This document shows, one piece after another, positions 2,752 through 61,257 of a DNA stretch of 64,000 nucleotides. The notes below the pieces were generated by a model, which was not told where the DNA came from, did no database searches, and saw nothing but the letters and a program-made list of their open reading frames with translations. This stretch comes from Anaerolineales bacterium. GTDB taxonomy: Bacteria; Chloroflexota; Anaerolineae; Anaerolineales; UBA4823. Position 1 is the first letter of the stretch. Each line of letters starts with the position of its first letter. The stretch is taken from positions 25,617 to 89,616 of the forward strand of contig JBJYWI010000006.1 of the NCBI GenBank assembly GCA_046259385.1. The letters run 5' to 3'. Position numbers and translations under genes: made by a program.

Positions 2752-3189
2752 ATGCGAGCTTTAGTTCAACGTGTGATAAATGGTCGGGTTTCCGTCTCTG
2801 GACAAACTGTCGCAGAGATAGGACCTGGTCTGGTGATATTACTTGGGGTCGGACCGCAGGATGGTGATGAACAGATCCGTTACCTGGTTGACAAGATCGC
2901 AAATTTGAGGATTTTTGAAGATCAGGACGGCAAAATCAACCGCTCCGTACTGGATATCGGGGGCGAGGTGCTGGTTGTTTCTCAATTCACTTTATATGCC
3001 GATACCCGTAAGGGAAGACGTCCTTCATTTACCAATGCCGCGCCTCCAGAGATTGCCCGTCCAATTGTAGAGCAATTTGCTGAATTAATGGAATCCAGAG
3101 GGGTCCCAACCCGTAAAGGAGAATTTGGCGCCCATATGCTGGTCGAGATTGCAAACGATGGACCGGTGACGATCTGGCTCGAACGCTAA
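2752..3189 (+). CDS. dtd: D-aminoacyl-tRNA deacylase
   Basis: 145 aa. MRALVQRV...GPGLVILLGV...SQFTLYADTRKGRRPSF is typical Dtd. Confidence 0.9.
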   Translation: MRALVQRVINGRVSVSGQTVAEIGPGLVILLGVGPQDGDEQIRYLVDKIANLRIFEDQDGKINRSVLDIGGEVLVVSQFTLYADTRKGRRPSFTNAAPPEIARPIVEQFAELMESRGVPTRKGEFGAHMLVEIANDGPVTIWLER

Positions 3190-3980
3190 AAAGGCTGTTG
3201 GATAGCCCAGGCTGAGAAAAACTCCTCCAGCGGGCCGCCCCTCTCGCCTCTCTTTGCCGGGTACACCCGGTGCAAACTCTCCTCTTTTAATATTACTTCA
3301 GGCACTTTCACCCTTCGTCCAGCCTCGATTGAAGCGCGCCTGATGAATAAAGCATGCTGTGTTTTATGGCACAAAGCAGCCTGGATTTTATTATTCAGAA
3401 CCGACCGGACATTTATCACAATATGGGCGGGGTCAGACCTGTTCAGGATGCGTGGCTTGGGGTGTTCCGGGTAAGCGGCAGCGACAGTATATAAAAAGAA
3501 CAGGCTGTCTTGGCTGGATGCAGCCACTAAACGAGAAGCTTTATTGCAGAGCAGGTGCGCTGGGTGCCCATACTCGCCGTTTGTGCCGTGCGAGATCAAA
3601 ATATCCACATCTCTCCGCTGAATCTGTTCAGCGACCTGAGCCGCTAACCGCGCCAGGTCGGTTGTGAATGGGTAAAGTGCCTGATCCGGTCCAACAACCG
3701 GGTCTGGATATCCCAGGTTTGTCAGGCTGCTACCACCCAGATTCTCAACTGCGCATGCCACTTCTTTCTCCCGCAGGCTCCCGAGTTCCTCCGGTAGGCA
3801 GAGCGGAGGGTCGCCACTTTCGCCCCCCTCACCTCTGGTGGCAATTAAATAATGAACCTCGACCTCCGATTGAGCTAGCAGCGCCAGCGCCCCCCCGGAC
3901 AGCATGGTTTCATCATCGGGATGCGCAAAAAAAGCCAGAACTTTCACGATCGAGGATATTAACACACATCCATAATTCAT
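3186..3980 (-). CDS. PIG-L/LmbE-family N-acetylglucosaminyl deacetylase
   Basis: VLAFFAHPDDETMLSGG motif (AHPDDE) and later conserved His residues. 264 aa. Confidence 0.8.
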   Translation of the reverse strand: MNYGCVLISSIVKVLAFFAHPDDETMLSGGALALLAQSEVEVHYLIATRGEGGESGDPPLCLPEELGSLREKEVACAVENLGGSSLTNLGYPDPVVGPDQALYPFTTDLARLAAQVAEQIQRRDVDILISHGTNGEYGHPAHLLCNKASRLVAASSQDSLFFLYTVAAAYPEHPKPRILNRSDPAHIVINVRSVLNNKIQAALCHKTQHALFIRRASIEAGRRVKVPEVILKEESLHRVYPAKRGERGGPLEEFFSAWAIQQPF

Positions 3981-4048
3981 TCAACTGCTAATTTCTTCAC
4001 ACCGAATTTTCAGTTTATAATTTGACGAATTTAGAATGAATACTGGCT

Positions 4049-5119
4049 ATGGATAACAAATCACCATCCGGGAGAACGATACGCCTGACCAGCCTGTCAG
4101 ATTGTGCGGGTTGAGCTTCAAAGCTGAGCGCTGAGGCTCTGGCGCAGGTGCTGCGCCCGCTGAAAGAGATATACCGATCATCTGATTTTCCGGAACTGCT
4201 GGTCGGCCTGGGCGAAACAGATGACGCCGCGGTCTGGCGTCTAGAGGACGACCGCGCCCTGGTTGCAACAACGGATTTTTTTACCCCTGTCGTAGATGAC
4301 CCCTATGACTATGGTGCTATCGCGGCTGCAAACGCGCTGTCGGACGTATATGCGATGGGTGGCCAGCCCTTCCTTGCTCTAAACGTCGCTGCGCTGCCGC
4401 CGGACCTTCCAGAGGAGATCAACGCTGAAATATTAAGGGGCGGCGCCGAAAAGGCTCGCGAAGCCGGAGTTGTGGTCGCCGGAGGCCACACGATCCAGGA
4501 CAAAGAGCCAAAATACGGCTTGATTGTGCTGGGGTTTGTGGACCCGGGAAAAATCATTACAAAAATGAACGCCAGACCAGGCGACAGTCTGGTTCTGAGC
4601 AAGCCAATCGGCACAGGGACAATCACCACCGCCCTCAAGCGCGGGATCGCTGAACCCGAACATGTGGAAAAGGTTGTGAGGTGGATGAAACGCCTGAATA
4701 AAACCACCTCGGAACTTGCAAGCAGGTTTGGTATCAAGTCCGGCACCGATATCACCGGTTTCAGTCTTCTCGGTCACGCTTATGAAATGGCATCAGCCTC
4801 GGGAGTCAGGTTCCGGTTTGACTTTGACAGCATCCCATTTTTCTCCGGTGCAACTGGGTATGCAAAAGAATGGGTTTTTCCTGGAGGGTCCTCTGATAAC
4901 CGGCTTTTCTATGGTAAGCATGTGGATTTTACTCCCACAATTGATGAGTCGTCACAGATGCTGTTGTTTGACGCTCAGACCAGCGGCGGCTTGCTGCTAT
5001 CTGTTCCTCCCGACCGGTTAATAAACCTGCTCCAGGCAGGGTCAGCTGCAGCCCAGGAAATGTGGCTGGTCGGGGAGGTAATCGAAGGCGTTGGAATTGA
5101 AGTCGTCAAGATTGGATAA
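4049..5119 (+). CDS. selD: Selenide, water dikinase (selenophosphate synthetase), Sec-containing form; UGA at 4112..4114
   Basis: The ORF track begins at 4148. The upstream frame is open to ATG 4049 except for one TGA. Translation is MDNKSPSGRTIRLTSLSDCAGUASKLSAEALAQVLRPLKE..., with U-x-x-K aligning to Cys17/Lys20 of the E. coli SelD glycine-rich loop. The rest is the canonical SelD/AIR-synthase-like fold (DDAAVW...TTDFFTPVVDDPYDYGAIAAANALSDVYAMGG). Confidence 0.85.
4127..4161 (+). promoter_or_regulatory. Candidate SECIS stem-loop for selD
   Basis: Upper stem GGCGCAG(4141-4147)/CTGCGCC(4151-4157) with loop GUG. Possible lower stem AGCG(4127-4130)/CGCT(4158-4161). The apical loop lies about 34-36 nt past the UGA. 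Confidence 0.45.
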
Positions 5120-11934: not shown

Positions 11935-13143
11935 ATGGATAAACATCAAATGATCAACGAAATGGCTGTCGATAACGGTTCAAAGATTCTCCTGCTGTTA
12001 ATGGATGGTCTGGGAGGCGTGCCGCTGGAACCGGGCGGATTGACAGAACTCGAGGCCGCCCACACACCCAATATGGATGCTCTCAGCGGTCGCGCTTCAA
12101 TGGGGCTGAGCGAAGTCGTCGCTCCCGGGTTCAGTCCCGGCAGCGGTCCCGGACATCTAGCGCTTTTTGGTTATGAACCGCTCCACTACATAATAGGCAG
12201 GGGCGTTCTCGAAGCGCTGGGAATCGGTTTTGAACTCAACCCGCAGGATGTGGCAATTCGCTGCAATTTCTGCACCCTGGACGCTGACGGTAATATCAGC
12301 GACCGCCGTGCCGGCAGGATTCCCACCGAAGAATGTATAAAGAGAGTGGAAATTCTGCGCAGAATAAAAATACCCGGGGTTGAGATTTTCGTGGAACCGG
12401 TAAAAGAGTACCGCTTTGCCCTCATCCTACGTGGAGATGGTTTGGATCCCCGTATTCAGGAGACTGACCCGCAGATGACCGGGGTGCCGCCCCGCATGAT
12501 TGAGGCGATTGATCCTGCGGCAGAAAAAACAGCCGGGATCCTGCGCCAGTGGTGGGATGAAGCTAACGCGCTGCTCGCCGAGCACCCGCCGGCAAACAGC
12601 TGTACCATGCGGGGTTATGCCAAGGACCCCGGCTTGCCGCGCTTTCCAGAGGTTTACAGGATAAAATCAGCTGCAGTAGCGGTTTACCCGATGTATAAAG
12701 GCGTGTCCAGGCTGGTGGGCATGGACGTTATCGAGCACGATGCGGAAACGCCCGCCCAGGAATTTGAAGTAGTTAAAAAGTATTGGAACGATTACGATTT
12801 CTTCTTCGTACATGTTAAAAAGACTGACAGTTACGGTGAGGATGGGAATTTTGACGCCAAAGTCGGAGTAATTGAAGATGTGGATAGGGCGCTTCCAATG
12901 CTGCTGGAACTGAATCCGGATGTTATCGTGATTACCGGGGACCATTCAACTCCATCCCTGATGAAACGCCACAGCTGGCACCGTGTACCGGTTCTGATCT
13001 GGGCTGAATGGGCGCGCTACGGAAAATCGCTGCCCTTTGGAGAGACCAACTGCGCGACCGGAAGCCTGGGATTAATCCGCCATGTTGACATCATGCCGCT
13101 CGCCCTGGCGCACGCAAAACGGCTCGGAAAATTTGGCGCATAA
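11935..13143 (+). CDS. apgM: Cofactor-independent phosphoglycerate mutase, archaeal type
   Basis: KILLLLMDGLGG, the TGDHSTP motif, 402 aa. Confidence 0.85.
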   Translation: MDKHQMINEMAVDNGSKILLLLMDGLGGVPLEPGGLTELEAAHTPNMDALSGRASMGLSEVVAPGFSPGSGPGHLALFGYEPLHYIIGRGVLEALGIGFELNPQDVAIRCNFCTLDADGNISDRRAGRIPTEECIKRVEILRRIKIPGVEIFVEPVKEYRFALILRGDGLDPRIQETDPQMTGVPPRMIEAIDPAAEKTAGILRQWWDEANALLAEHPPANSCTMRGYAKDPGLPRFPEVYRIKSAAVAVYPMYKGVSRLVGMDVIEHDAETPAQEFEVVKKYWNDYDFFFVHVKKTDSYGEDGNFDAKVGVIEDVDRALPMLLELNPDVIVITGDHSTPSLMKRHSWHRVPVLIWAEWARYGKSLPFGETNCATGSLGLIRHVDIMPLALAHAKRLGKFGA

Positions 13144-13150
13144 ACCAGGA

Positions 13151-13819
13151 GTGGATTCCGGATTGACTTTCAGAAATTACTTCCACCTGCTGGCTGTTGT
13201 CACCGCAGCAGCTGTTGCGACTATATCCTGCAAATTCCTTGTCCCGGAAGAGCCGCCTGTTCAGGCAGGGGCGATTCTGTTTCAGGATGATTTCAGCGAC
13301 CCGCAAAGCGGGTGGAACCGGGTTTCAACCGATACCGGGGAGACGGATTATGACGACGGCGTATACCGGATTCTGGTTAACGAATCCAACACCGATATCT
13401 GGTCCAAGCCCGGTCAGAGCTTTGAAGATGCTGTTATTGAAGTGGATGCTTTTAAGGTGGGCGGGGTTCGTGACAATCGGTTTGGGGTGATCTGCCGGGC
13501 AACCAGCGATGACACCTTCTACACCTTTATCATCAGCAGTGACGGTTACTACGGTATCGGCAAGGTCAAGGGGGAATTCTATGAGCTGATAGGGACGGAT
13601 GCGCTTCTACCAAGCGAAGAAATCGAGCAGGGTTCAGCTATTAACAGAATCAGAGCCGAATGTATCGGAGACCGGCTTTCTCTATTTGTTAACGGAGTGA
13701 AAATTGACGAGGTCAAAGACACCGAACTGGTCTCGGGTGATGTTGGATTGATCGCTGGTACTTATAATGAGCCCGGCACAGACATCCGCTTCGACAATTT
13801 TATCGTTCGGCAGCCGTAA
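13151..13819 (+). CDS. Secreted or anchored hypothetical protein with a jelly-roll (LamG/ConA-like) appearance
   Basis: Hydrophobic N-terminal segment LLAVVTAAAVATISC, then a beta-rich domain. The ORF track start (13082) overlaps apgM. GTG 13151 or TTG 13163 after AGGAG (13147-13151) is more likely. No family was recognised with certainty. Confidence 0.5.
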   Translation: MDSGLTFRNYFHLLAVVTAAAVATISCKFLVPEEPPVQAGAILFQDDFSDPQSGWNRVSTDTGETDYDDGVYRILVNESNTDIWSKPGQSFEDAVIEVDAFKVGGVRDNRFGVICRATSDDTFYTFIISSDGYYGIGKVKGEFYELIGTDALLPSEEIEQGSAINRIRAECIGDRLSLFVNGVKIDEVKDTELVSGDVGLIAGTYNEPGTDIRFDNFIVRQP

Positions 13820-20763: not shown

Positions 20764-21654
20764 ATGACCCCCAAACAAATACTATGGGCTGTGATCCTGG
20801 TGCTGGTTGCAGTGATCATCTGCCTGATTGTCGGGTTCGGCGCATACATCTATTTAAACCAGCGCGGGCAAACAAATCAAGGCGGGCCAACAAGCACCAC
20901 TCTGGTATTGACCGCAAACGCCCTATCTCTCAGGCAAACCGCCGCTGCGGGTCAACCAGCCCCTGTCGAAGAGACCCAGCAGGTTCCGGAAGTCACCCAG
21001 GAAGGCAGTCAACCAGCCATAACCGAACCTCTATCGGATGTGCCCACGATCAGCGCCGATGAAAACACCAACTGCCGCCTCGGCCCCAGCCAACTGTACG
21101 ACATTGTTGGTTACCTGCTGACCAATCAGGAATCAATTGTCGCCGGGCGCAATTCTGAAAGCAACTGGTGGTACATTGAGAACCCCGCAAAACCAGGCGC
21201 TTTCTGTTGGGTGTGGGGTGGGACAACCAGTGTGCAGGGAGAGACAAGTGCCCTTGAGGTAGTTGAACCCCCGCCCCCGCCTGAAAACCCGGAGATTGCA
21301 TTCGGGGCTGCCTTCACCAGAGTACTGTTGTGCGATGGCTCTTCCGCAGCCATGATTCAGGTTATCAATACTGGACAGACTCCCTTTGAATCCGTCAGGG
21401 TCAATATTCAAAATCTTGACACGGACGTCGCAAACACAGGGACTCTTTTTCCCAATACACCATTCACACAGTCCGCCTCGGTTTGCCCTCCCGGTGAAAC
21501 CACCCTGCTTCCTGGTGAAGGGGCGTATATTGGCTCGGCTTTTTCCGGTATGTCCCCGGTTACCAACACGTACAAAGCCACCATCACTTTATGCACTGAA
21601 GACAACAACCTGGGTGAATGTGTGGTCCAGGTATTGGAATTCGATCACCCCTAA
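20764..21654 (+). CDS. Membrane-anchored SH3b-domain protein, paralog 2
   Basis: N-terminal TM helix and the same architecture as 19864..20748 (NTNCRLGPSQLYDIVGYLLTNQESIVAGRNSESNWWYIENP...CWVW). Confidence 0.6.
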   Translation: MTPKQILWAVILVLVAVIICLIVGFGAYIYLNQRGQTNQGGPTSTTLVLTANALSLRQTAAAGQPAPVEETQQVPEVTQEGSQPAITEPLSDVPTISADENTNCRLGPSQLYDIVGYLLTNQESIVAGRNSESNWWYIENPAKPGAFCWVWGGTTSVQGETSALEVVEPPPPPENPEIAFGAAFTRVLLCDGSSAAMIQVINTGQTPFESVRVNIQNLDTDVANTGTLFPNTPFTQSASVCPPGETTLLPGEGAYIGSAFSGMSPVTNTYKATITLCTEDNNLGECVVQVLEFDHP

Positions 21655-21917
21655 ATTGATCTCACCAAACAAGCCAGGTTTCTACTGCATTCCCAGAAAG
21701 AGTGCTGCTCCTTCACTATTGAACCCTGTACTTGTTTCGCCTGCCCCAGTTGTATTCAACCCAAATACTATAAATGAGGAGCAGCGTTACATCCACTCCT
21801 GTCATTTCCGCGGCTGGTGTAAATGCCTGCTTCAGAACCCCTTGCAACCCTGCGGGTATGTTAGAGGCGAAACTTTCTTTTTACGTTCAAATTCTTCACC
21901 GGGTTTATAATTCATCC

Positions 21918-23603
21918 ATGCCCGATTCACCCATTGGCAGGAAAACTGTGGTCGGTTTGATCATTATTCTGGCTGGATTGGCGGTATTGTTGGCACTGCC
22001 CAGATTCATTGCACCGGGAAGATTCGTCACCGCCGATGAACCGAGCTGGGGGAAAAGGTCAGCAAACTTCTTCTATGCAATCTCGCATGGGGATTACGCT
22101 TCTACCTACCAGTCCGGTCATCCGGGTGTCACCACTTACTGGATTGGCTCCGCTGCCTACAAGCTCCGGTTTCCGAAGTATAGCCGGGTGGGGCAAACTT
22201 CACTCGGCGACACAAAACTGCTCGAACTTTTTAGGAGGCACGGACCGCCATTAATTCAGGTTCTGTCCACTGCCCGGACTATTCAGGCAGCCGTTATTAT
22301 TTTTACTCTGCTGGTCAGTTTTTTTTACGCCAGTTCTGTTTTTAATTTCTGGTACGCCTTACCCGGCTTTTTTATCATTGCCCTTGACCCTTTCCACATA
22401 GCCCACTCGCGCGTCTTCCATACCAACGGGTTGATCAGCAGTTTTCTATTCCTGGCTCTGCTCTCCTACCTGTTCTTCCTGAAAGAAAACCGCTGGCATG
22501 GGTTGATTGTTTCAAGTATTGCTACAAGCTTGGCTATCTTAACCGTAACACAGGGGTTGATTTTCCTTCCGGTAATTGGTCTGATCACTTTTCTGGAATT
22601 CTGGATGCACAGGAGCAGCCTGGAAGAACCTTGGCTTAGAAATGCCTCCAAAAAATATTTATTCCCATTTATTTTCTGGATCGCATTAATTGGAATAGTC
22701 TTCTTCCTCCTCTGGCCGGCCATGTGGGTTTCTCCCCTTGATTCGATAGCTTACCTGTTCAACGACACATTCAAGGCAACAGTCGGGGTTATTAATGTAA
22801 GTGAAAACGCACAAGGATCCTCATCAACAAATCCGGTGTTGTTCTACATCAAAGCTTTTCTATGGCGTAGTACCATCCTGGTCTGGATCGGTTGTAGTCT
22901 GACTTTGTTTTATATCTTACGGAAAAATCCCCCTTCCCTAGTGCGTGCACAGCGAAAAAATGTAATCTATTTGATTCTTTTTGTGATTATCTTCACCTTG
23001 GTAATGAGTTTGGGCGCAAAAAAATACGACCGCTACCTCCTCCCTGTTTTTCCGCCATTGGATCTAATTGCCGGAATCGGCTGGATTGTCGCTGCAGATT
23101 GGTTGAATACTCGATTTTTTAACCTGCAGTCGAATTTAATGCGTTACGGTACCATCGCGATTCTGCTGTTTGTACAGCTCATGGTGATCATCCCGCACCA
23201 CCCGTATTACCTGACCTATTTCAATCCAATTTTGGGAAGTCCTGAAGAAGTGATCAGGGACAACATGGATACTGGCTGGGGTGAAGGTCTCAGCGAGGCT
23301 GCTATTTACCTACGCCAGAAACCAGAAATTCAGGACAACAGGGTGATCGCCTGGTTCCCGCTGGCCTTTAACTGGTACAGCGCCTCGCTGGGCTTTACCG
23401 CCGACCCCATATATCTGGATAATGAAATCAGTGATTGGCGCCTCAAGGATTATTTATCCGCAGATTATGCGGTGATTTATATCAATCAGTGGCAGCGCAA
23501 TTATCCAAAAAAGCTGATGGATCACCTGGAAAATCTCTCCCCGGAACACACCGTCAGTATCAACGGTATAGATTATGTCAGAATTTACAACCTGAATAAA
23601 TAA
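21918..23603 (+). CDS. GT39/ArnT-like (PMT_2) integral-membrane glycosyltransferase
   Basis: Many TM helices with a DEPSW motif in the first loop. ATG 21918 is preferred over the ORF-track start 21774. Confidence 0.65.
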   Translation: MPDSPIGRKTVVGLIIILAGLAVLLALPRFIAPGRFVTADEPSWGKRSANFFYAISHGDYASTYQSGHPGVTTYWIGSAAYKLRFPKYSRVGQTSLGDTKLLELFRRHGPPLIQVLSTARTIQAAVIIFTLLVSFFYASSVFNFWYALPGFFIIALDPFHIAHSRVFHTNGLISSFLFLALLSYLFFLKENRWHGLIVSSIATSLAILTVTQGLIFLPVIGLITFLEFWMHRSSLEEPWLRNASKKYLFPFIFWIALIGIVFFLLWPAMWVSPLDSIAYLFNDTFKATVGVINVSENAQGSSSTNPVLFYIKAFLWRSTILVWIGCSLTLFYILRKNPPSLVRAQRKNVIYLILFVIIFTLVMSLGAKKYDRYLLPVFPPLDLIAGIGWIVAADWLNTRFFNLQSNLMRYGTIAILLFVQLMVIIPHHPYYLTYFNPILGSPEEVIRDNMDTGWGEGLSEAAIYLRQKPEIQDNRVIAWFPLAFNWYSASLGFTADPIYLDNEISDWRLKDYLSADYAVIYINQWQRNYPKKLMDHLENLSPEHTVSINGIDYVRIYNLNK

Positions 23604-50192: not shown

Positions 50193-51488
50193 ATGACTGA
50201 TCCAATCAACGCCTTCACACTCGCCCAGGCCCAATTCGACCACATGGCTGAACTCCTCAATCTTGAGAGCTATGTCGCCGAAATGCTGCGCTTCCCAAGA
50301 CGTGAATATAAATTCCAGATTCCGGTGCGGATGAACAACGGTACGCTGAATATATATTACGGTTTTCGAGTCCAGCACAACGATGCCCGCGGCCCAGCTA
50401 AAGGTGGGATACGCTTTCATCCTTCAGAAACCCTGGATACGATCCGGGCTCTGGCAATGTGGATGACCTGGAAAACAGCAGTCGTTGATATTCCTCTGGG
50501 AGGCGCGAAGGGAGGAGTGGCTGTTGACCCCGCCGTGCTGGCGGATTCAGAAAAAGAACGCCTGTGCAGGGGTTGGATCGCAGAATTCTGGCGGGCGATT
50601 GGACCCCGACAGGATATCCCAGCCCCGGACGTGGGCACCACCCCCCAGATGATGGGCTGGATGATGGATGAATATTCAAAGATGGCGGGAGAATACACCC
50701 CTGGCGCGATCACCGGAAAACCGGTTGGTGGAGGCGGCACACTCGGCAGAATGGAGGCGACCGGATTCGGGGTCATTTACACCCTCAGGGAAGCGATCAA
50801 GCACCTCAATCTGGATCCCTCCAGGTGCAACGTATCCATCCAAGGCTTTGGAAATGTAGCCCAGCATGCCGCCATCGGTTTCACCGAATTTCTGGGCGGT
50901 ACAGTTGAATGCGTTTCCTTTTGGGACCGCCGCGATTTTACCTCCTACACTATCAGCCATCCGGACGGTGTCAAGCCTAACGAGCTTATTTCAATAACAG
51001 ATCCATATGGTTCCATAGACAAGAACCAGGCTCATGGAAAGGGTTATATAATCGAGGAAGGCAGCGCATGGATCCAGAAAGATGTGGATATTCTGATGCC
51101 GTGCGCCCTTGAGGGACAGATCAACTCGGATAACGTTGACACCATCAGTGACCGTGTCAAAATTGTCGCGGAAGGCGCAAACGGCCCAACTACGCTCGAA
51201 GCTGACCGTTTATTCGAAGACCGCAAGATCTTTCTTATTCCGGACACATTATGTAATGCGGGAGGGGTGACTGTATCCTATTTTGAAGGAGTGCAAAATG
51301 ACATGAATTATTACTGGTCGCGCGAAGAAGTAATCGACCGTTTGAATGATAAACTGACCCGGGCTTTTTCTGACGTACTCAAAGTCGCGGAGGGAGAAAA
51401 AATCTATATGCGAGATGCTGCCTATATTGTCGCAATCGACCGTGTGGTAAAAGCCATGAAAGAACGCGGCTGGCTATACGTACCGTAA
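50193..51488 (+). CDS. Glu/Leu/Phe/Val dehydrogenase family protein (divergent GDH paralog)
   Basis: RVQHNDARGPAKGGIRFHP, GGAKGG, 431 aa. No Shine-Dalgarno sequence is visible upstream. Confidence 0.85.
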   Translation: MTDPINAFTLAQAQFDHMAELLNLESYVAEMLRFPRREYKFQIPVRMNNGTLNIYYGFRVQHNDARGPAKGGIRFHPSETLDTIRALAMWMTWKTAVVDIPLGGAKGGVAVDPAVLADSEKERLCRGWIAEFWRAIGPRQDIPAPDVGTTPQMMGWMMDEYSKMAGEYTPGAITGKPVGGGGTLGRMEATGFGVIYTLREAIKHLNLDPSRCNVSIQGFGNVAQHAAIGFTEFLGGTVECVSFWDRRDFTSYTISHPDGVKPNELISITDPYGSIDKNQAHGKGYIIEEGSAWIQKDVDILMPCALEGQINSDNVDTISDRVKIVAEGANGPTTLEADRLFEDRKIFLIPDTLCNAGGVTVSYFEGVQNDMNYYWSREEVIDRLNDKLTRAFSDVLKVAEGEKIYMRDAAYIVAIDRVVKAMKERGWLYVP

Positions 51489-51582: not shown

Positions 51583-52830
51583 ATGTCAGAATTAAATCCA
51601 TTCGCCATAGCTCAAGCTCAGCTGGACGAAGCCGCCAAGGTGCTGCAATTGGACGCTGCCACGCATGAATTGCTGCGCTGGCCGCTGCGCGAATTGCACG
51701 TCACATTGCCAGTAAAAATGGACGATGGCAGCACCCAGGTTTTTCGCGGCTTCCGGGTCCAGTACAACGATGCCCGTGGTCCCACAAAAGGAGGAATTCG
51801 CTACCATCCTGACGAAACGATCGACACTGTCAGAGCGCTTGCTGCCTGGATGACCTGGAAATGTGCAATGGTAGATATCCCCCTGGGAGGCGGTAAAGGC
51901 GGCATTATCTGCAATCCAAGACAGCTTTCACAGGGTGAACTGGAACGCCTCAGCCGGGCATATATCCGTCAGGTCGGCCGTCTGATCGGTATTGAGAAGG
52001 ATGTGCCTGCACCGGATGTATATACAAATCCACAAGTTATGGCCTGGATGATGGACGAATTCTCGTTCCTGAAGGGATACAATGAGTTCGGGGTGATTAC
52101 CGGCAAACCAATTCCCCTGGGTGGTTCTGCAGGGCGCGGCGACGCAACCGCGCGCGGTGGTATCTACACCCTGCGAGAAGCCGGAAAGGCGCTCGGCATC
52201 GAATTGAAGGGCGCAACAACTGCCATCCAGGGATATGGAAACGCAGGCTCGTTCGCCCACAAGCTGGGAGTGGAACTGCTTGGATTAAAGGTTATTGCAG
52301 TCTCCGATTCGAGAGGCGGCATTGTTAATCCAGACGGTCTGGATTACGAATCAGTGTTTACCTTCAAGCAAAAAAATGGAACCGTTGTGGGGTATCCTGG
52401 TACGACTGAGATAACAAACCCGAAACTGCTGGAACTGGATGTCGACGTTTTAATTCCCGCCGCGCTGGAGAGTGTTATCACCCAATCGAATGCAGGGAAT
52501 ATCAAGGCTAAAATAAGCGTTGAACTGGCTAATGGTCCCACAACTCCAGAGGCTGACCAGATACTATTTGAAAACGGTGTCTATGTCATCCCGGATTTTC
52601 TGGCTAACGCCGGTGGTGTTACAGTCTCCTATTTTGAAATGGTCCAGAACGCATATGATTATTACTGGGAGGAGGAAATTATACACGAAAGGCTGGACCG
52701 CAAAATGACCGCGGCTTTCCATTCCATGCACAATACAGCCGAAAAACACAACTTGCACAACCGCCTGGCTGCATATGTCGTTTCTGTAGATAGAGTCGCG
52801 GAAGCCATGCGTCTGCGCGGCTGGGTGTAA
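51583..52830 (+). CDS. gdh: Glutamate dehydrogenase
   Basis: [25 protein letters not shown], 415 aa. AAGGAG lies upstream. Confidence 0.9.
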
Positions 52831-58319: not shown

Positions 58320-59915
58320 TTAATTCCCCTTTGTGCAAATTGTACGGCTCTCGGGGATGATCTGAAAATCATACGGTTGGTTATAAGTCGAAAAAAGACT
58401 GTTGTCTTCCAGGATTTCGAAATCACCGTCAAAATAAAGGTTAAAAATTGTTCTAAAATTGTTGACCGGAGATATGCTGTTATAAATCCGGTCATTTCCT
58501 TCACCGGGGAGATAATATGCGTTAAGGATATTCACACGCGTATCAGGCTGAGATTTGACAGCGCCGTGGTCGGCTTGCAGGATGATAATCGGTTCAGGGT
58601 CAGATTGACGGATAATTTCCTGAAGAACTGGCAGGATTTTACGATTAATAAAACTGACCTGATCTTTATATCCCTGATAATATGGTTTGTCATAATCCAC
58701 AAAATCTCCATCTGGTTCGAACACAAAAGGACCATGCGGGATGACCATATGGGTAAATACAAATTTCGGTCCATCTACTTCAGGAAGGTTTTCCAGCTGT
58801 TCAAGAACATACAGTATTCGTTCATAGTGGATTCTATTTGGGTTATTTAGATCTGGTTGCAGGATCTCAGGCAGCAAAGCCGCACCGTCAATAACAATCC
58901 GGGCGAGCGAATTGCGAAGTACAAGCAGCTCGAATTCGTTGATACCGCTGAACAATCTGTCCGCTATTAATCCTCCTTTTCGTGGAGACAGATAGATATC
59001 AGCGTCTTCCCACTGGGTGATATTGAATCCCGTCTCAAATGCAACTATCTGGTATCCCATGCTCTCTAATATGTTCCGCACCCTATTGTCCTGGATAAGC
59101 TCCTTGATGCCTGCCCGGCTGGTATTGCCAGGTTTATAGTTATCTCCCAGCGCCTCGAGGTAGTTCATGTTTAGACTTGAAGATAAGGAAAGGCTGGTCT
59201 GGGCGTAATTGCTGCGGGAACAGGTTCCAATAAAGAAACCCGAATTTTCAAGATCCATAAGGAACTGGCTGTTATCAAATTCAAACTCACCTAAGAGTAT
59301 GTCATCGCGTGCATAGGCATCAAGGATAATCAAGTAGATATCAGGCAACTGTCCATTCGAGTGCTCCTGAGCAGGCACTGTATCTTCATATTGTTCCTCA
59401 ATGCCACTTTTGGAGATATAACTGCTGAATTCAAACCTGCCTATTTGGATTAGAGGGATGATTAAAGCCGTTACTGCGATGATATTTAACAATCCATTTA
59501 GAGATTCGGTGGCAACTTTTTTCTTCAGGATAATGAATAAACCTGCAGCAAACAATACCACCCATATCAAAAGCAGGACCCGGTGTTTACCCAGAAGAGC
59601 GCCCAATTCCTGGGAGGATTTTAGAAGATTGTAAAAATGCCCGTAGGTGAAAAAAAGGATAATCGCCATGCTGGTAATCAGGGCGGCTTTATCACGATCC
59701 TGTACTAACATGACAAGAACATAATATAAAAAAACACTGATAAATACCGAGACAATAAGCGCTCGAAAAGCTGTATCGAACCTGATCTCTTCAACATTGC
59801 TGCCGAAAAGGGCAAGTACCGGGTAAGCAGCGAAAAGAAAAGGGTAAAAGTGTTTATCCAGTAACCTTTTCAAATTTGCGGCTCTCCAAGAGGAAGATTG
59901 TTCGAAGCGTGCCAT
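58320..59915 (-). CDS. Membrane-anchored sulfatase-like (alkaline-phosphatase superfamily) hydrolase/transferase
   Basis: About 5 N-terminal TM helices, DIYLIILDAYARDD metal-ligand context, and ILQADHG near the C-terminus. Confidence 0.65.
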   Translation of the reverse strand: MARFEQSSSWRAANLKRLLDKHFYPFLFAAYPVLALFGSNVEEIRFDTAFRALIVSVFISVFLYYVLVMLVQDRDKAALITSMAIILFFTYGHFYNLLKSSQELGALLGKHRVLLLIWVVLFAAGLFIILKKKVATESLNGLLNIIAVTALIIPLIQIGRFEFSSYISKSGIEEQYEDTVPAQEHSNGQLPDIYLIILDAYARDDILLGEFEFDNSQFLMDLENSGFFIGTCSRSNYAQTSLSLSSSLNMNYLEALGDNYKPGNTSRAGIKELIQDNRVRNILESMGYQIVAFETGFNITQWEDADIYLSPRKGGLIADRLFSGINEFELLVLRNSLARIVIDGAALLPEILQPDLNNPNRIHYERILYVLEQLENLPEVDGPKFVFTHMVIPHGPFVFEPDGDFVDYDKPYYQGYKDQVSFINRKILPVLQEIIRQSDPEPIIILQADHGAVKSQPDTRVNILNAYYLPGEGNDRIYNSISPVNNFRTIFNLYFDGDFEILEDNSLFSTYNQPYDFQIIPESRTICTKGN

Positions 59916-61257
59916 TTATCTCAAATTTCTGGTGGATTTGAAAGAAAACCGAAAACGCACTTTCAAAATTAGCTAGGTCGTAATCAGGGAAGACATCTTC
60001 TCGTGATACAAGAAGTTTTTGAACCTGAGAATCTTCTTTCGGCACAAATTCAATCACAAGCCAGCGGCCTAGATGTTGAAAGAATTCAGCAATTTTTATC
60101 AACGGTACGTTATTCGAAATCGCCAGATGGTGGATTAATGCCAGAGCAAATACAGCTTCTGCGGGAGCACGCCGTTTCAAGCTTTCCCTTTCACTGTTGT
60201 CCCAGCCCATATCTGGACTTGGGTTTGTGAGATCAAGCAGCAATGGAAGCAGGTTGGTCTCATTTTCTTCCAGGCAATTCTGATAATTAAGTTCAACCGC
60301 TGCAGGTTCATTGTCTATCGAAATTGTAGGGATTCCCATGCGGCTTGCTATTCGGCTGTATCGACCAAGATTGGCTCCCAAATCCCACATACTTTCAGGC
60401 GATACTCTGTCAAGAATCGTGGCGATAATATCTTCTTTGCTTTTTTCGCTCTGCTGAGAATAATTTGATGTTTCGTAGTAATCTGTCCAGCCGCCCTTGG
60501 ATGGCGACCAGCGCAGTCGGTTAACCGCTCTCTCCAGACTATCGATTAACCCCTGCATTCCCGTTCTGGACATCTTCCGGGAAGAATCAATGGATCTGCC
60601 TGCAAATCGCTTTTCACTCGAAGCGTGCAGCATGATATGAATCTGCGCAGGAAAGGAAAGCCTGGCTCGAAACGGCAATAACCTGGCTGCGAGATCCAGC
60701 GGAACGCCGTCTATGTAAACTCTAAAAAGCTGGCTCAAGCGGACATCTTTGTATGCCATTAGGTATAGCGGCGCCAGGAAATGTTTGCAGAACTGCCGGT
60801 ATGCTATCCACGGTTGGCCCTCTTTGTATATCTGGAAAGAGAGTGAGTCAATTAGAACAGGTTTGCCTTTATGGAATTGAATATTAAATGCGCTGCTATC
60901 CTTCAGGACCATATCGTGTTCAAGTGCTTTGGTTTGAATTTTTAATGTCGCCAGAGCAGCGTCTTTCAGCTGGCTGAAGCACCATTCATATGGATATGAG
61001 ATAAAATCAATTGTTTCTGGTTGTATGACTTTGTAGCATTCATCAGGTAGATTCTCCCACTTTGGAACTTCACGGTGAGGTATGAGCAGTTTTTCAGAGA
61101 CCAGCTCATCATATAGGCCAGTGTTTATTAGCCTTTCGAAATCTTCCTTATAGATTGAATTTACCTGTCGATATAGGACTCCCCCTTCAACAAAGAGATA
61201 TCCGCTCGGGTCTCGAAACGAAGCCCCCAGATACTGGTGGAAATTCGAGGAATCCAT
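59854..61257 (-). CDS. Class I SAM-dependent methyltransferase with a large N-terminal domain
   Basis: MWDLGANLGRYS (motif I-like) in the C-terminal half. The N-terminal domain is unrecognised. Confidence 0.6.
   Translation of the reverse strand: MDSSNFHQYLGASFRDPSGYLFVEGGVLYRQVNSIYKEDFERLINTGLYDELVSEKLLIPHREVPKWENLPDECYKVIQPETIDFISYPYEWCFSQLKDAALATLKIQTKALEHDMVLKDSSAFNIQFHKGKPVLIDSLSFQIYKEGQPWIAYRQFCKHFLAPLYLMAYKDVRLSQLFRVYIDGVPLDLAARLLPFRARLSFPAQIHIMLHASSEKRFAGRSIDSSRKMSRTGMQGLIDSLERAVNRLRWSPSKGGWTDYYETSNYSQQSEKSKEDIIATILDRVSPESMWDLGANLGRYSRIASRMGIPTISIDNEPAAVELNYQNCLEENETNLLPLLLDLTNPSPDMGWDNSERESLKRRAPAEAVFALALIHHLAISNNVPLIKIAEFFQHLGRWLVIEFVPKEDSQVQKLLVSREDVFPDYDLANFESAFSVFFQIHQKFEINGTLRTIFLLESRKFEKVTG

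Follow-up and report, generated by a model that had tools for sequence, protein, structure and literature searches.

This locus raises the question of whether its selD gene has been called at full length, or whether the catalytic end of the protein is hidden behind an in-frame stop codon. In the window, by which we mean the whole 64-kb stretch of DNA that was analysed, mechanical ORF calling places selD at 4148–5119, with a GTG start and a product of 323 aa. An earlier sequence-only reading had noted that this ORF lacks the N-terminal glycine-rich loop, and this is borne out, as the called ORF starts past the Sec/Cys–Lys loop. The same reading had proposed that selD is itself a selenoprotein missed by the ORF caller, with a TGA codon read as selenocysteine (Sec). 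Our analysis supports this proposal, and none of the sequence comparisons refutes it.

The ATG at 4049–4051 is the sole canonical in-frame start between the upstream in-frame stop, TGA 4037–4039, located four codons 5′ of it, and the TGA at 4112–4114. It had been singled out before as the only available start, correctly so. From 4049 the peptide reads MDNKSPSGRTIRLTSLSDCAG-TGA-ASKLSAEALAQVLRP..., and codon 22 is the single in-frame stop in the 4049–5119 reading before the terminal TAA. With Sec (U) at this codon, the surrounding peptide is ...RLTSLSDCAG-U-ASKLSAEALAQVL.... The 323-aa called ORF is identical to the database protein P0001 and corresponds to residues 34–356 of the full-length product. 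The closest database proteins of the SelD query are nearly all ~320 aa long, with ~90% query coverage, and these homologues show the same truncation artefact as the 4148–5119 call. The 323-aa ORF is a calling artefact that comes from taking the UGA for a stop. The coordinates of the features discussed here are collected in Table 1.

Table 1. Features of the selD locus, in window coordinates.
Feature	Position	Strand	Remarks
Full-length selD CDS (predicted)	4049..5119	+	356 codons plus TAA stop, putative Sec at codon 22; TIGR00476 match from profile position 1
ATG start (predicted)	4049..4051	+	no other canonical start in frame between the upstream stop and the TGA; the 21-codon distance is also the commonest among the 81 orthologs
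Cys19 codon TGT	4103..4105	+	three residues before the putative Sec, C-x-x-U; TG[T/C] in 81/81 sequences
UGA, putative Sec codon (codon 22)	4112..4114	+	aligned with E. coli Cys17; TGA in 81/81; Cys in P0068 and P0072
Lys25 codon	4121..4123	+	aligned with conserved E. coli Lys20; AA[G/A] in 81/81 sequences
Bacterial SECIS hairpin (predicted)	4141..4157	+	7-bp stem 4141–4147/4151–4157, loop GUG 4148–4150
Window-specific hairpin directly after the UGA	4113..4139	+	predicted; not recovered by RNAalifold in relatives; needs T 4138
Mechanically called ORF, annotation artefact	4148..5119	+	GTG start, 323 aa; identical to P0001

The surroundings of the start can be described briefly. The region 3981–4048 upstream of selD is AT-rich, with no obvious Shine-Dalgarno sequence before ATG 4049 by eye, and a promoter scan upstream of 4049 returned no sigma-70-like site. 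The divergent neighbour of selD, on the minus strand at 3186–3980, encodes a PIG-L family deacetylase.

The family membership of the 356-aa product has been examined by profile and phmmer comparisons made with U replaced by C. The NCBIfam equivalog TIGR00476 (selD) scores 372.5 bits against a cutoff of 125 and places residues 12–322 on profile positions 1–309 of 311, while the NCBIfam model NF002098 gives 343 bits for the full-length product against a cutoff of 299. An alignment that begins at the first profile position agrees with the earlier claim that the N-terminal extension belongs to SelD. Among solved structures, the best phmmer match is E. coli SelD (3u0o, E = 1e-71), with query residues 9–349 aligned to chain residues 4–339. 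In this alignment U22 falls on Cys17 and Lys25 on Lys20, which confirms that the TGA occupies the catalytic Cys17 position with the conserved Lys three residues later. The phmmer alignment to the Aquifex aeolicus SelD chain 2yye shows a Cys in the same column as U22, and we take this Cys to be an engineered replacement for the natural Sec. The two-domain AIRS and AIRS_C (PurM-like) architecture is recorded for P0001, that is for residues 34–356, as PF00586 and PF02769. Judged by these alignments, 4049–5119 is predicted to encode a complete Sec-type SelD, with a predicted role as a selenide, water dikinase, in an uncultured Anaerolineae (Chloroflexota) bacterium.

On the other hand, the UGA could be a true stop. 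The 323-aa product from GTG 4148 would then be functional, or the gene would be a pseudogene, and 4049–4111 would be a short ORF or leader. Gene callers do return a product of the 323-aa type both here and in most relatives. However, such a truncated product would be without the catalytic Sec/Cys–Lys loop, and it is the full-length form that matches the SelD profile from position 1. The relatives allow this alternative to be weighed further. A genome scan yielded 80 loci, all from Anaerolineae or other Chloroflexota and including those of the cultured Bellilinea caldifistulae, Thermanaerothrix daxensis and T. solaris and of an Anaerolinea thermophila MAG; together with the window they make 81 sequences. 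The tblastn matches to the 80 loci begin as early as query residues 1–7, and the codon aligned with 4112–4114 is TGA in 80/80 of these genomes. The peptide IRLTSLSxC[AS]G-TGA-ASK, continuing as ASKL after the TGA, is kept in 81/81 sequences, all of which also have an in-frame start at least 18 codons 5′ of the TGA and no stop codon between the two. Measured from the furthest such start, the TGA is most often 21 codons away, as in the window.

In the 13 codons 5′ of the TGA, column entropy averages 0.43 bit at the first codon position, 0.30 bit at the second and 1.31 bit at the third, the mark of a translated sequence kept by purifying selection. Counting all 63 nt before the UGA, the encoded peptide is conserved in 81 genomes with variation mostly at third positions, which counts against a true stop, and a pseudogene is incompatible with conservation across 80 species. 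The sequence-only reading had named conservation of 4049–4147 in relatives as a check and a start downstream of the TGA in those relatives as evidence against itself. The UGA and its flanking peptide are retained throughout, and the peptide and an upstream start occur in 81/81 sequences, so a true start 3′ of the TGA in the relatives finds no support. Termination at this UGA is very unlikely.

The TGA is one base from TGC or TGT, and a sequencing or assembly error for one of these Cys codons could have produced it. This explanation is set against the presence of TGA in four independent assemblies of the same organism (L081–L084) and in all 80 other species, and its probability is negligible. 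A genome-wide reassignment of UGA has also been considered and is excluded, as TGA terminates 10 of the 42 large ORFs in the window.

Cysteine does occur at the Sec position in two full-length relatives of rarer occurrence, P0068 (CAGCAAKL) and P0072 (CAGCASKL), which are 64–65% identical to the window product. P0068 and P0072 on one side and the window selD on the other form a classic Sec/Cys homolog pair. A further feature of the 81 sequences is an invariant Cys three residues before the putative Sec, giving C-[A/S]-G-U in 81/81.

The earlier reading had pointed to a GC-rich stem-loop after the TGA. It is indeed present, as the inverted repeat GGCGCAG-GUG-CUGCGCC at 4141–4157. Alone it folds at -11.3 kcal/mol, and it dominates the local structure in all folding windows that were tried; it can alternatively be read as a 6-bp stem with the loop G-G-U-G-C. 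The bacterial SECIS (bSECIS) consensus, here the bSECISearch model of Zhang and Gladyshev as summarised in PMC13188914 (Fig. 2), has a loop of 3–9 nt, an upper stem of 4–16 bp and a folding energy (MFE) of at most -7.5 kcal/mol. Its loop follows the UGA at a distance of 16–37 nt and has a G within its first two positions, typically as N1-G-[G/U]-N-N2 with N1 and N2 paired (PMC13188914). The hairpin agrees with the consensus in all four respects, having a 7-bp stem, a G-U-G loop closed by G:C (N1-G-U-N-N2), a spacing of 33 nt and a folding energy of -11.3 kcal/mol, and it is the same hairpin that is conserved in the relatives.

The conservation of the hairpin has been assessed in 80 distinct sequences. 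Standard pairs make up 97.1% of the stem cells, and the changes that do occur are one compensatory G:C to A:U exchange (L034) and eight wobble changes from G:C to G:U or U:G. The covariation score of the 7-bp stem is not above that of shuffles, the stem being too invariant for a covariation signal. Since the stem varies too little for this statistic, entropy at synonymous sites was compared with that in the rest of the gene, using a whole-gene codon alignment with 88 conserved four-fold codon columns. The four stem codons have third-position entropies of 0.10, 0.10, 0.00 and 0.53 bit (mean 0.18). The other 84 four-fold columns have a mean of 1.65 and a minimum of 0.66 bit, so that every one of them lies above each stem codon (Mann-Whitney p = 4e-4). 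The Val codon in the hairpin loop has a free third position, at 1.67 bit. The synonymous constraint in the stem acts on the RNA and not on the protein. Because TGA is found in 80/80 genomes and the stem is near-invariant at synonymous sites, the signal from the UGA and the hairpin is far beyond chance.

The two Cys-type homologs show what happens to the hairpin where the UGA is missing. The 21 nt equivalent to the hairpin region fold at -0.2 kcal/mol in P0068 and -6.1 kcal/mol in P0072, compared with -12.1 kcal/mol in the window, and the hairpin-encoded peptide LAQVLRP of the window is replaced with LAELLKP and LAKILAP. The hairpin thus travels with the UGA, since it is absent from one Cys-type homolog and degraded in the other. 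The gene for P0072 (Cys-type SelD, L086 3001–4089) keeps a degraded hairpin remnant, CUGGCGAAGAUUCUGGCGCCG, with the folding energy of -6.1 kcal/mol given above. This remnant resembles the "fossil SECIS" seen after Sec-to-Cys conversions (PMC1794560).

Other structural candidates in this region have been considered as well. An Rfam search of the whole window at gathering thresholds gave no match, and at permissive E-values the region 4000–4300 gave only chance snoRNA matches; this means that no curated model fits, not that structure is absent. Position 4138, the third position of selD codon 30, is T in the window and G in the other 80 orthologs (GCG/ACG to GCT). This T creates an alternative 8-bp hairpin in the window, pairing 4113–4120 with 4132–4139 and including the GA of the UGA. 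As a conserved element this hairpin was rejected, because RNAalifold does not recover it in the relatives and it depends on the unique T 4138, and it is probably not part of the conserved element. Position 4138 is not part of the 7-bp stem, but apart from the window it varies as little as the stem does, and for this reason the conserved RNA element may begin at +25/+26.

Another alternative accepts translation through the UGA but without Sec. In this case Cys, Trp or Arg would be inserted by a near-cognate tRNA, with the hairpin serving as a generic read-through stimulator. Non-Sec read-through of an SPS UGA with a nearby stem-loop has in fact been proposed for insects, for the SPS1 of Hymenoptera (PMC4561486), and no Sec machinery is found within the window. 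However, the hairpin fits the SelB-type bSECIS consensus in both spacing and loop sequence. Also, UGA is retained in 81/81 sequences even though UGC and UGU are one mutation away, which argues for a residue other than Cys. The remaining evidence on this alternative concerns the selenium-utilisation genes and a second selenoprotein gene.

No selA, selB or selC is located within the 64-kb window. Pfam or NCBIfam scans of its 45 large ORFs returned no selA, selB, ybbB, yqeB or yqeC, and the genes that they identified are housekeeping genes only, for example uvrA, Clp ATPase, gatA, gatB, dnaN, recD2, ETF and acyl-CoA dehydrogenase. A tRNA scan detected no tRNA-Sec, and no tRNA at all, in the window, and scanning 60 related selD loci with 3-kb flanks likewise gave no tRNA-Sec. 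This absence of Sec machinery carries little weight for the rest of the genome, because the 64-kb window is a small part of it. Anaerolinea thermophila UNI-1, which belongs to the same class as the window's organism, is listed as SelD+, SelA+, SelB+, YbbB-, YqeB+ and YqeC+ with 4 selenoproteins (Peng et al. 2016, PMC5029168 Tables S1, S2). Its SelA+/SelB+ status speaks against read-through without Sec.

The window also contains a second, uncalled selenoprotein gene, at 1440–1691 on the plus strand, of the SelW-like/Rdx family and with a TGA at 1476–1478. The 61–62-aa "Rdx" ORF called from GTG 1503 extends upstream to ATG 1440 as MLMKIELVYCAA-TGA-HYTDR..., which contains a CxxU motif. With U replaced by C, the 83-aa product covers positions 1–74 of 74 of PF10262 (E = 1e-16). 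Directly after this TGA lies a perfect 13-bp hairpin with the loop GAGC (1479–1508, -17.2 kcal/mol), whose spacing of 13 nt is just below the 16–37 nt of the consensus. A 59%-identical SelW-like homolog in the Anaerolineales genome L036 (1144–1386) also has a TGA, in the context CAV-TGA-HY. The stop of the SelW-like gene overlaps the start of a gene for a class I W/Y-type aminoacyl-tRNA synthetase (1688–2698). That the window holds another member of a known selenoprotein family, again with CxxU, is a further argument against insertion of an ordinary amino acid at the selD UGA, an explanation that we regard as highly improbable. Together, the Sec-type selD and the SelW-like gene mark the organism as a selenocysteine user.

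The locus is thus very probably a Sec-decoded selD with a functional bSECIS. The directly established observations behind this judgement are the sequence features, the family, the conservation of the UGA, the coding evolution upstream of it, the constraint on the hairpin RNA, and the coupling of the hairpin to UGA and not to UGC. In the proposed mechanism, translation would start at ATG 4049 and the UGA at 4112–4114 would be decoded as Sec, which would serve as the catalytic residue of the N-terminal Gly-rich loop. The hairpin, lying inside the CDS 33 nt after the UGA, would be bound through its G-U loop by SelB carrying Sec-tRNA(Sec), and SelB would deliver Sec to the ribosome once the UGA is in the A site, as in the standard bacterial mechanism. 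The comparisons above lead us to infer that Sec is in fact inserted, that SelB binds the hairpin and that the genome carries selA, selB and selC outside the window.

The main value of the finding is for annotation. The corrected gene model is selD at 4049–5119 with a translation exception at 4112–4114, and the same correction can be applied to hundreds of ~320-aa Anaerolineae "selenide, water dikinase" entries in public protein sets. The alignment of the conserved hairpin (A1) could seed a covariance model to find Sec-type selD in Chloroflexota.

Some observations concern the window outside the selenoprotein genes. Five large ORFs of 245–609 aa, at 21774–23603 (+), 58320–59915 (-), 59854–61257 (-), 20764–21654 (+) and 13082–13819 (+), have no Pfam match at E <= 1e-6, and for 21774–23603 and 59854–61257 an NCBIfam scan gave no match at E <= 1e-10 either. 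These five ORFs are uncharacterised proteins in an otherwise housekeeping region. Tandem paralogs of the Glu/Leu/Phe/Val dehydrogenase family adjoin each other at 50193–51488 and 51583–52830 (+).

The SelD of Haemophilus influenzae and that of Aquifex aeolicus (PDB 2yye/2zod, solved with Cys at this position) are Sec-containing bacterial SelDs of the same kind as the one proposed here. With Sec-type bacterial SelD the window's protein shares the match to TIGR00476, the position of the putative Sec, the Lys three residues on, a predicted SECIS within the CDS, and truncation by gene callers. The Sec-containing family has been surveyed by Zhang et al. 2006 (PMC1794560) and Mariotti et al. 2015 (PMC4561486). 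Sec is encoded by 19% of the SelD genes in a prokaryotic reference genome set, "always in the same position", and selenoprotein genes are "usually misannotated" (PMC4561486). Only one other bacterial selenoprotein is more widespread than Sec-type SelD. Both the Sec-type enzyme and its self-supporting logic are established (PMC1794560, PMC4561486, PMC13188914). The sequence-only reading had stressed a self-reinforcing loop, in which selenophosphate is needed to make the enzyme that makes it. The idea itself stands, but the emphasis needs correcting, as it is not new and has already been published (PMC1794560).

Compared with E. coli SelD (3u0o), which is Cys-type, the loop and Lys20 are conserved, but E. 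coli has Cys17 and no SECIS. The motif is C-A-G-U-A-S-K in the window, G-A-G-C-G-C-K in E. coli and S-S-G-C-A-A-K in Aquifex; instead of the C17-G-C19 arrangement of E. coli, the Anaerolineae have a Cys three residues upstream of the putative Sec. The Cys-type P0068 and P0072, from related uncultured bacteria, are orthologous over the full length and share the C-A-G-x-A-[AS]-K loop, with TGC in place of TGA. In contrast to other Sec-type SelDs, the hairpin sequence of the window is clade-specific and has no Rfam model. Its 33-nt spacing is near the upper end of the range allowed by the bSECIS consensus. The SECIS of E. coli fdhF carries a bulged U, and the window hairpin has no such bulge.

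The local peculiarities are limited to the invariant CxxU Cys and the class-wide frozen hairpin, a SECIS region of 20 nt, and neither departs from the known kind. As a speculative and rather doubtful idea, an intraloop selenenylsulfide between the two CxxU residues could protect SelD or gate it by redox state, and the frozen hairpin could mark a clade-specific SelB–SECIS recognition code with SelD anchoring the Sec trait. The Sec-type selD described here opens no new biological question; set beside the known Sec-type SelDs, it is a known phenomenon that has been correctly recognised in a metagenomic genome without annotation.
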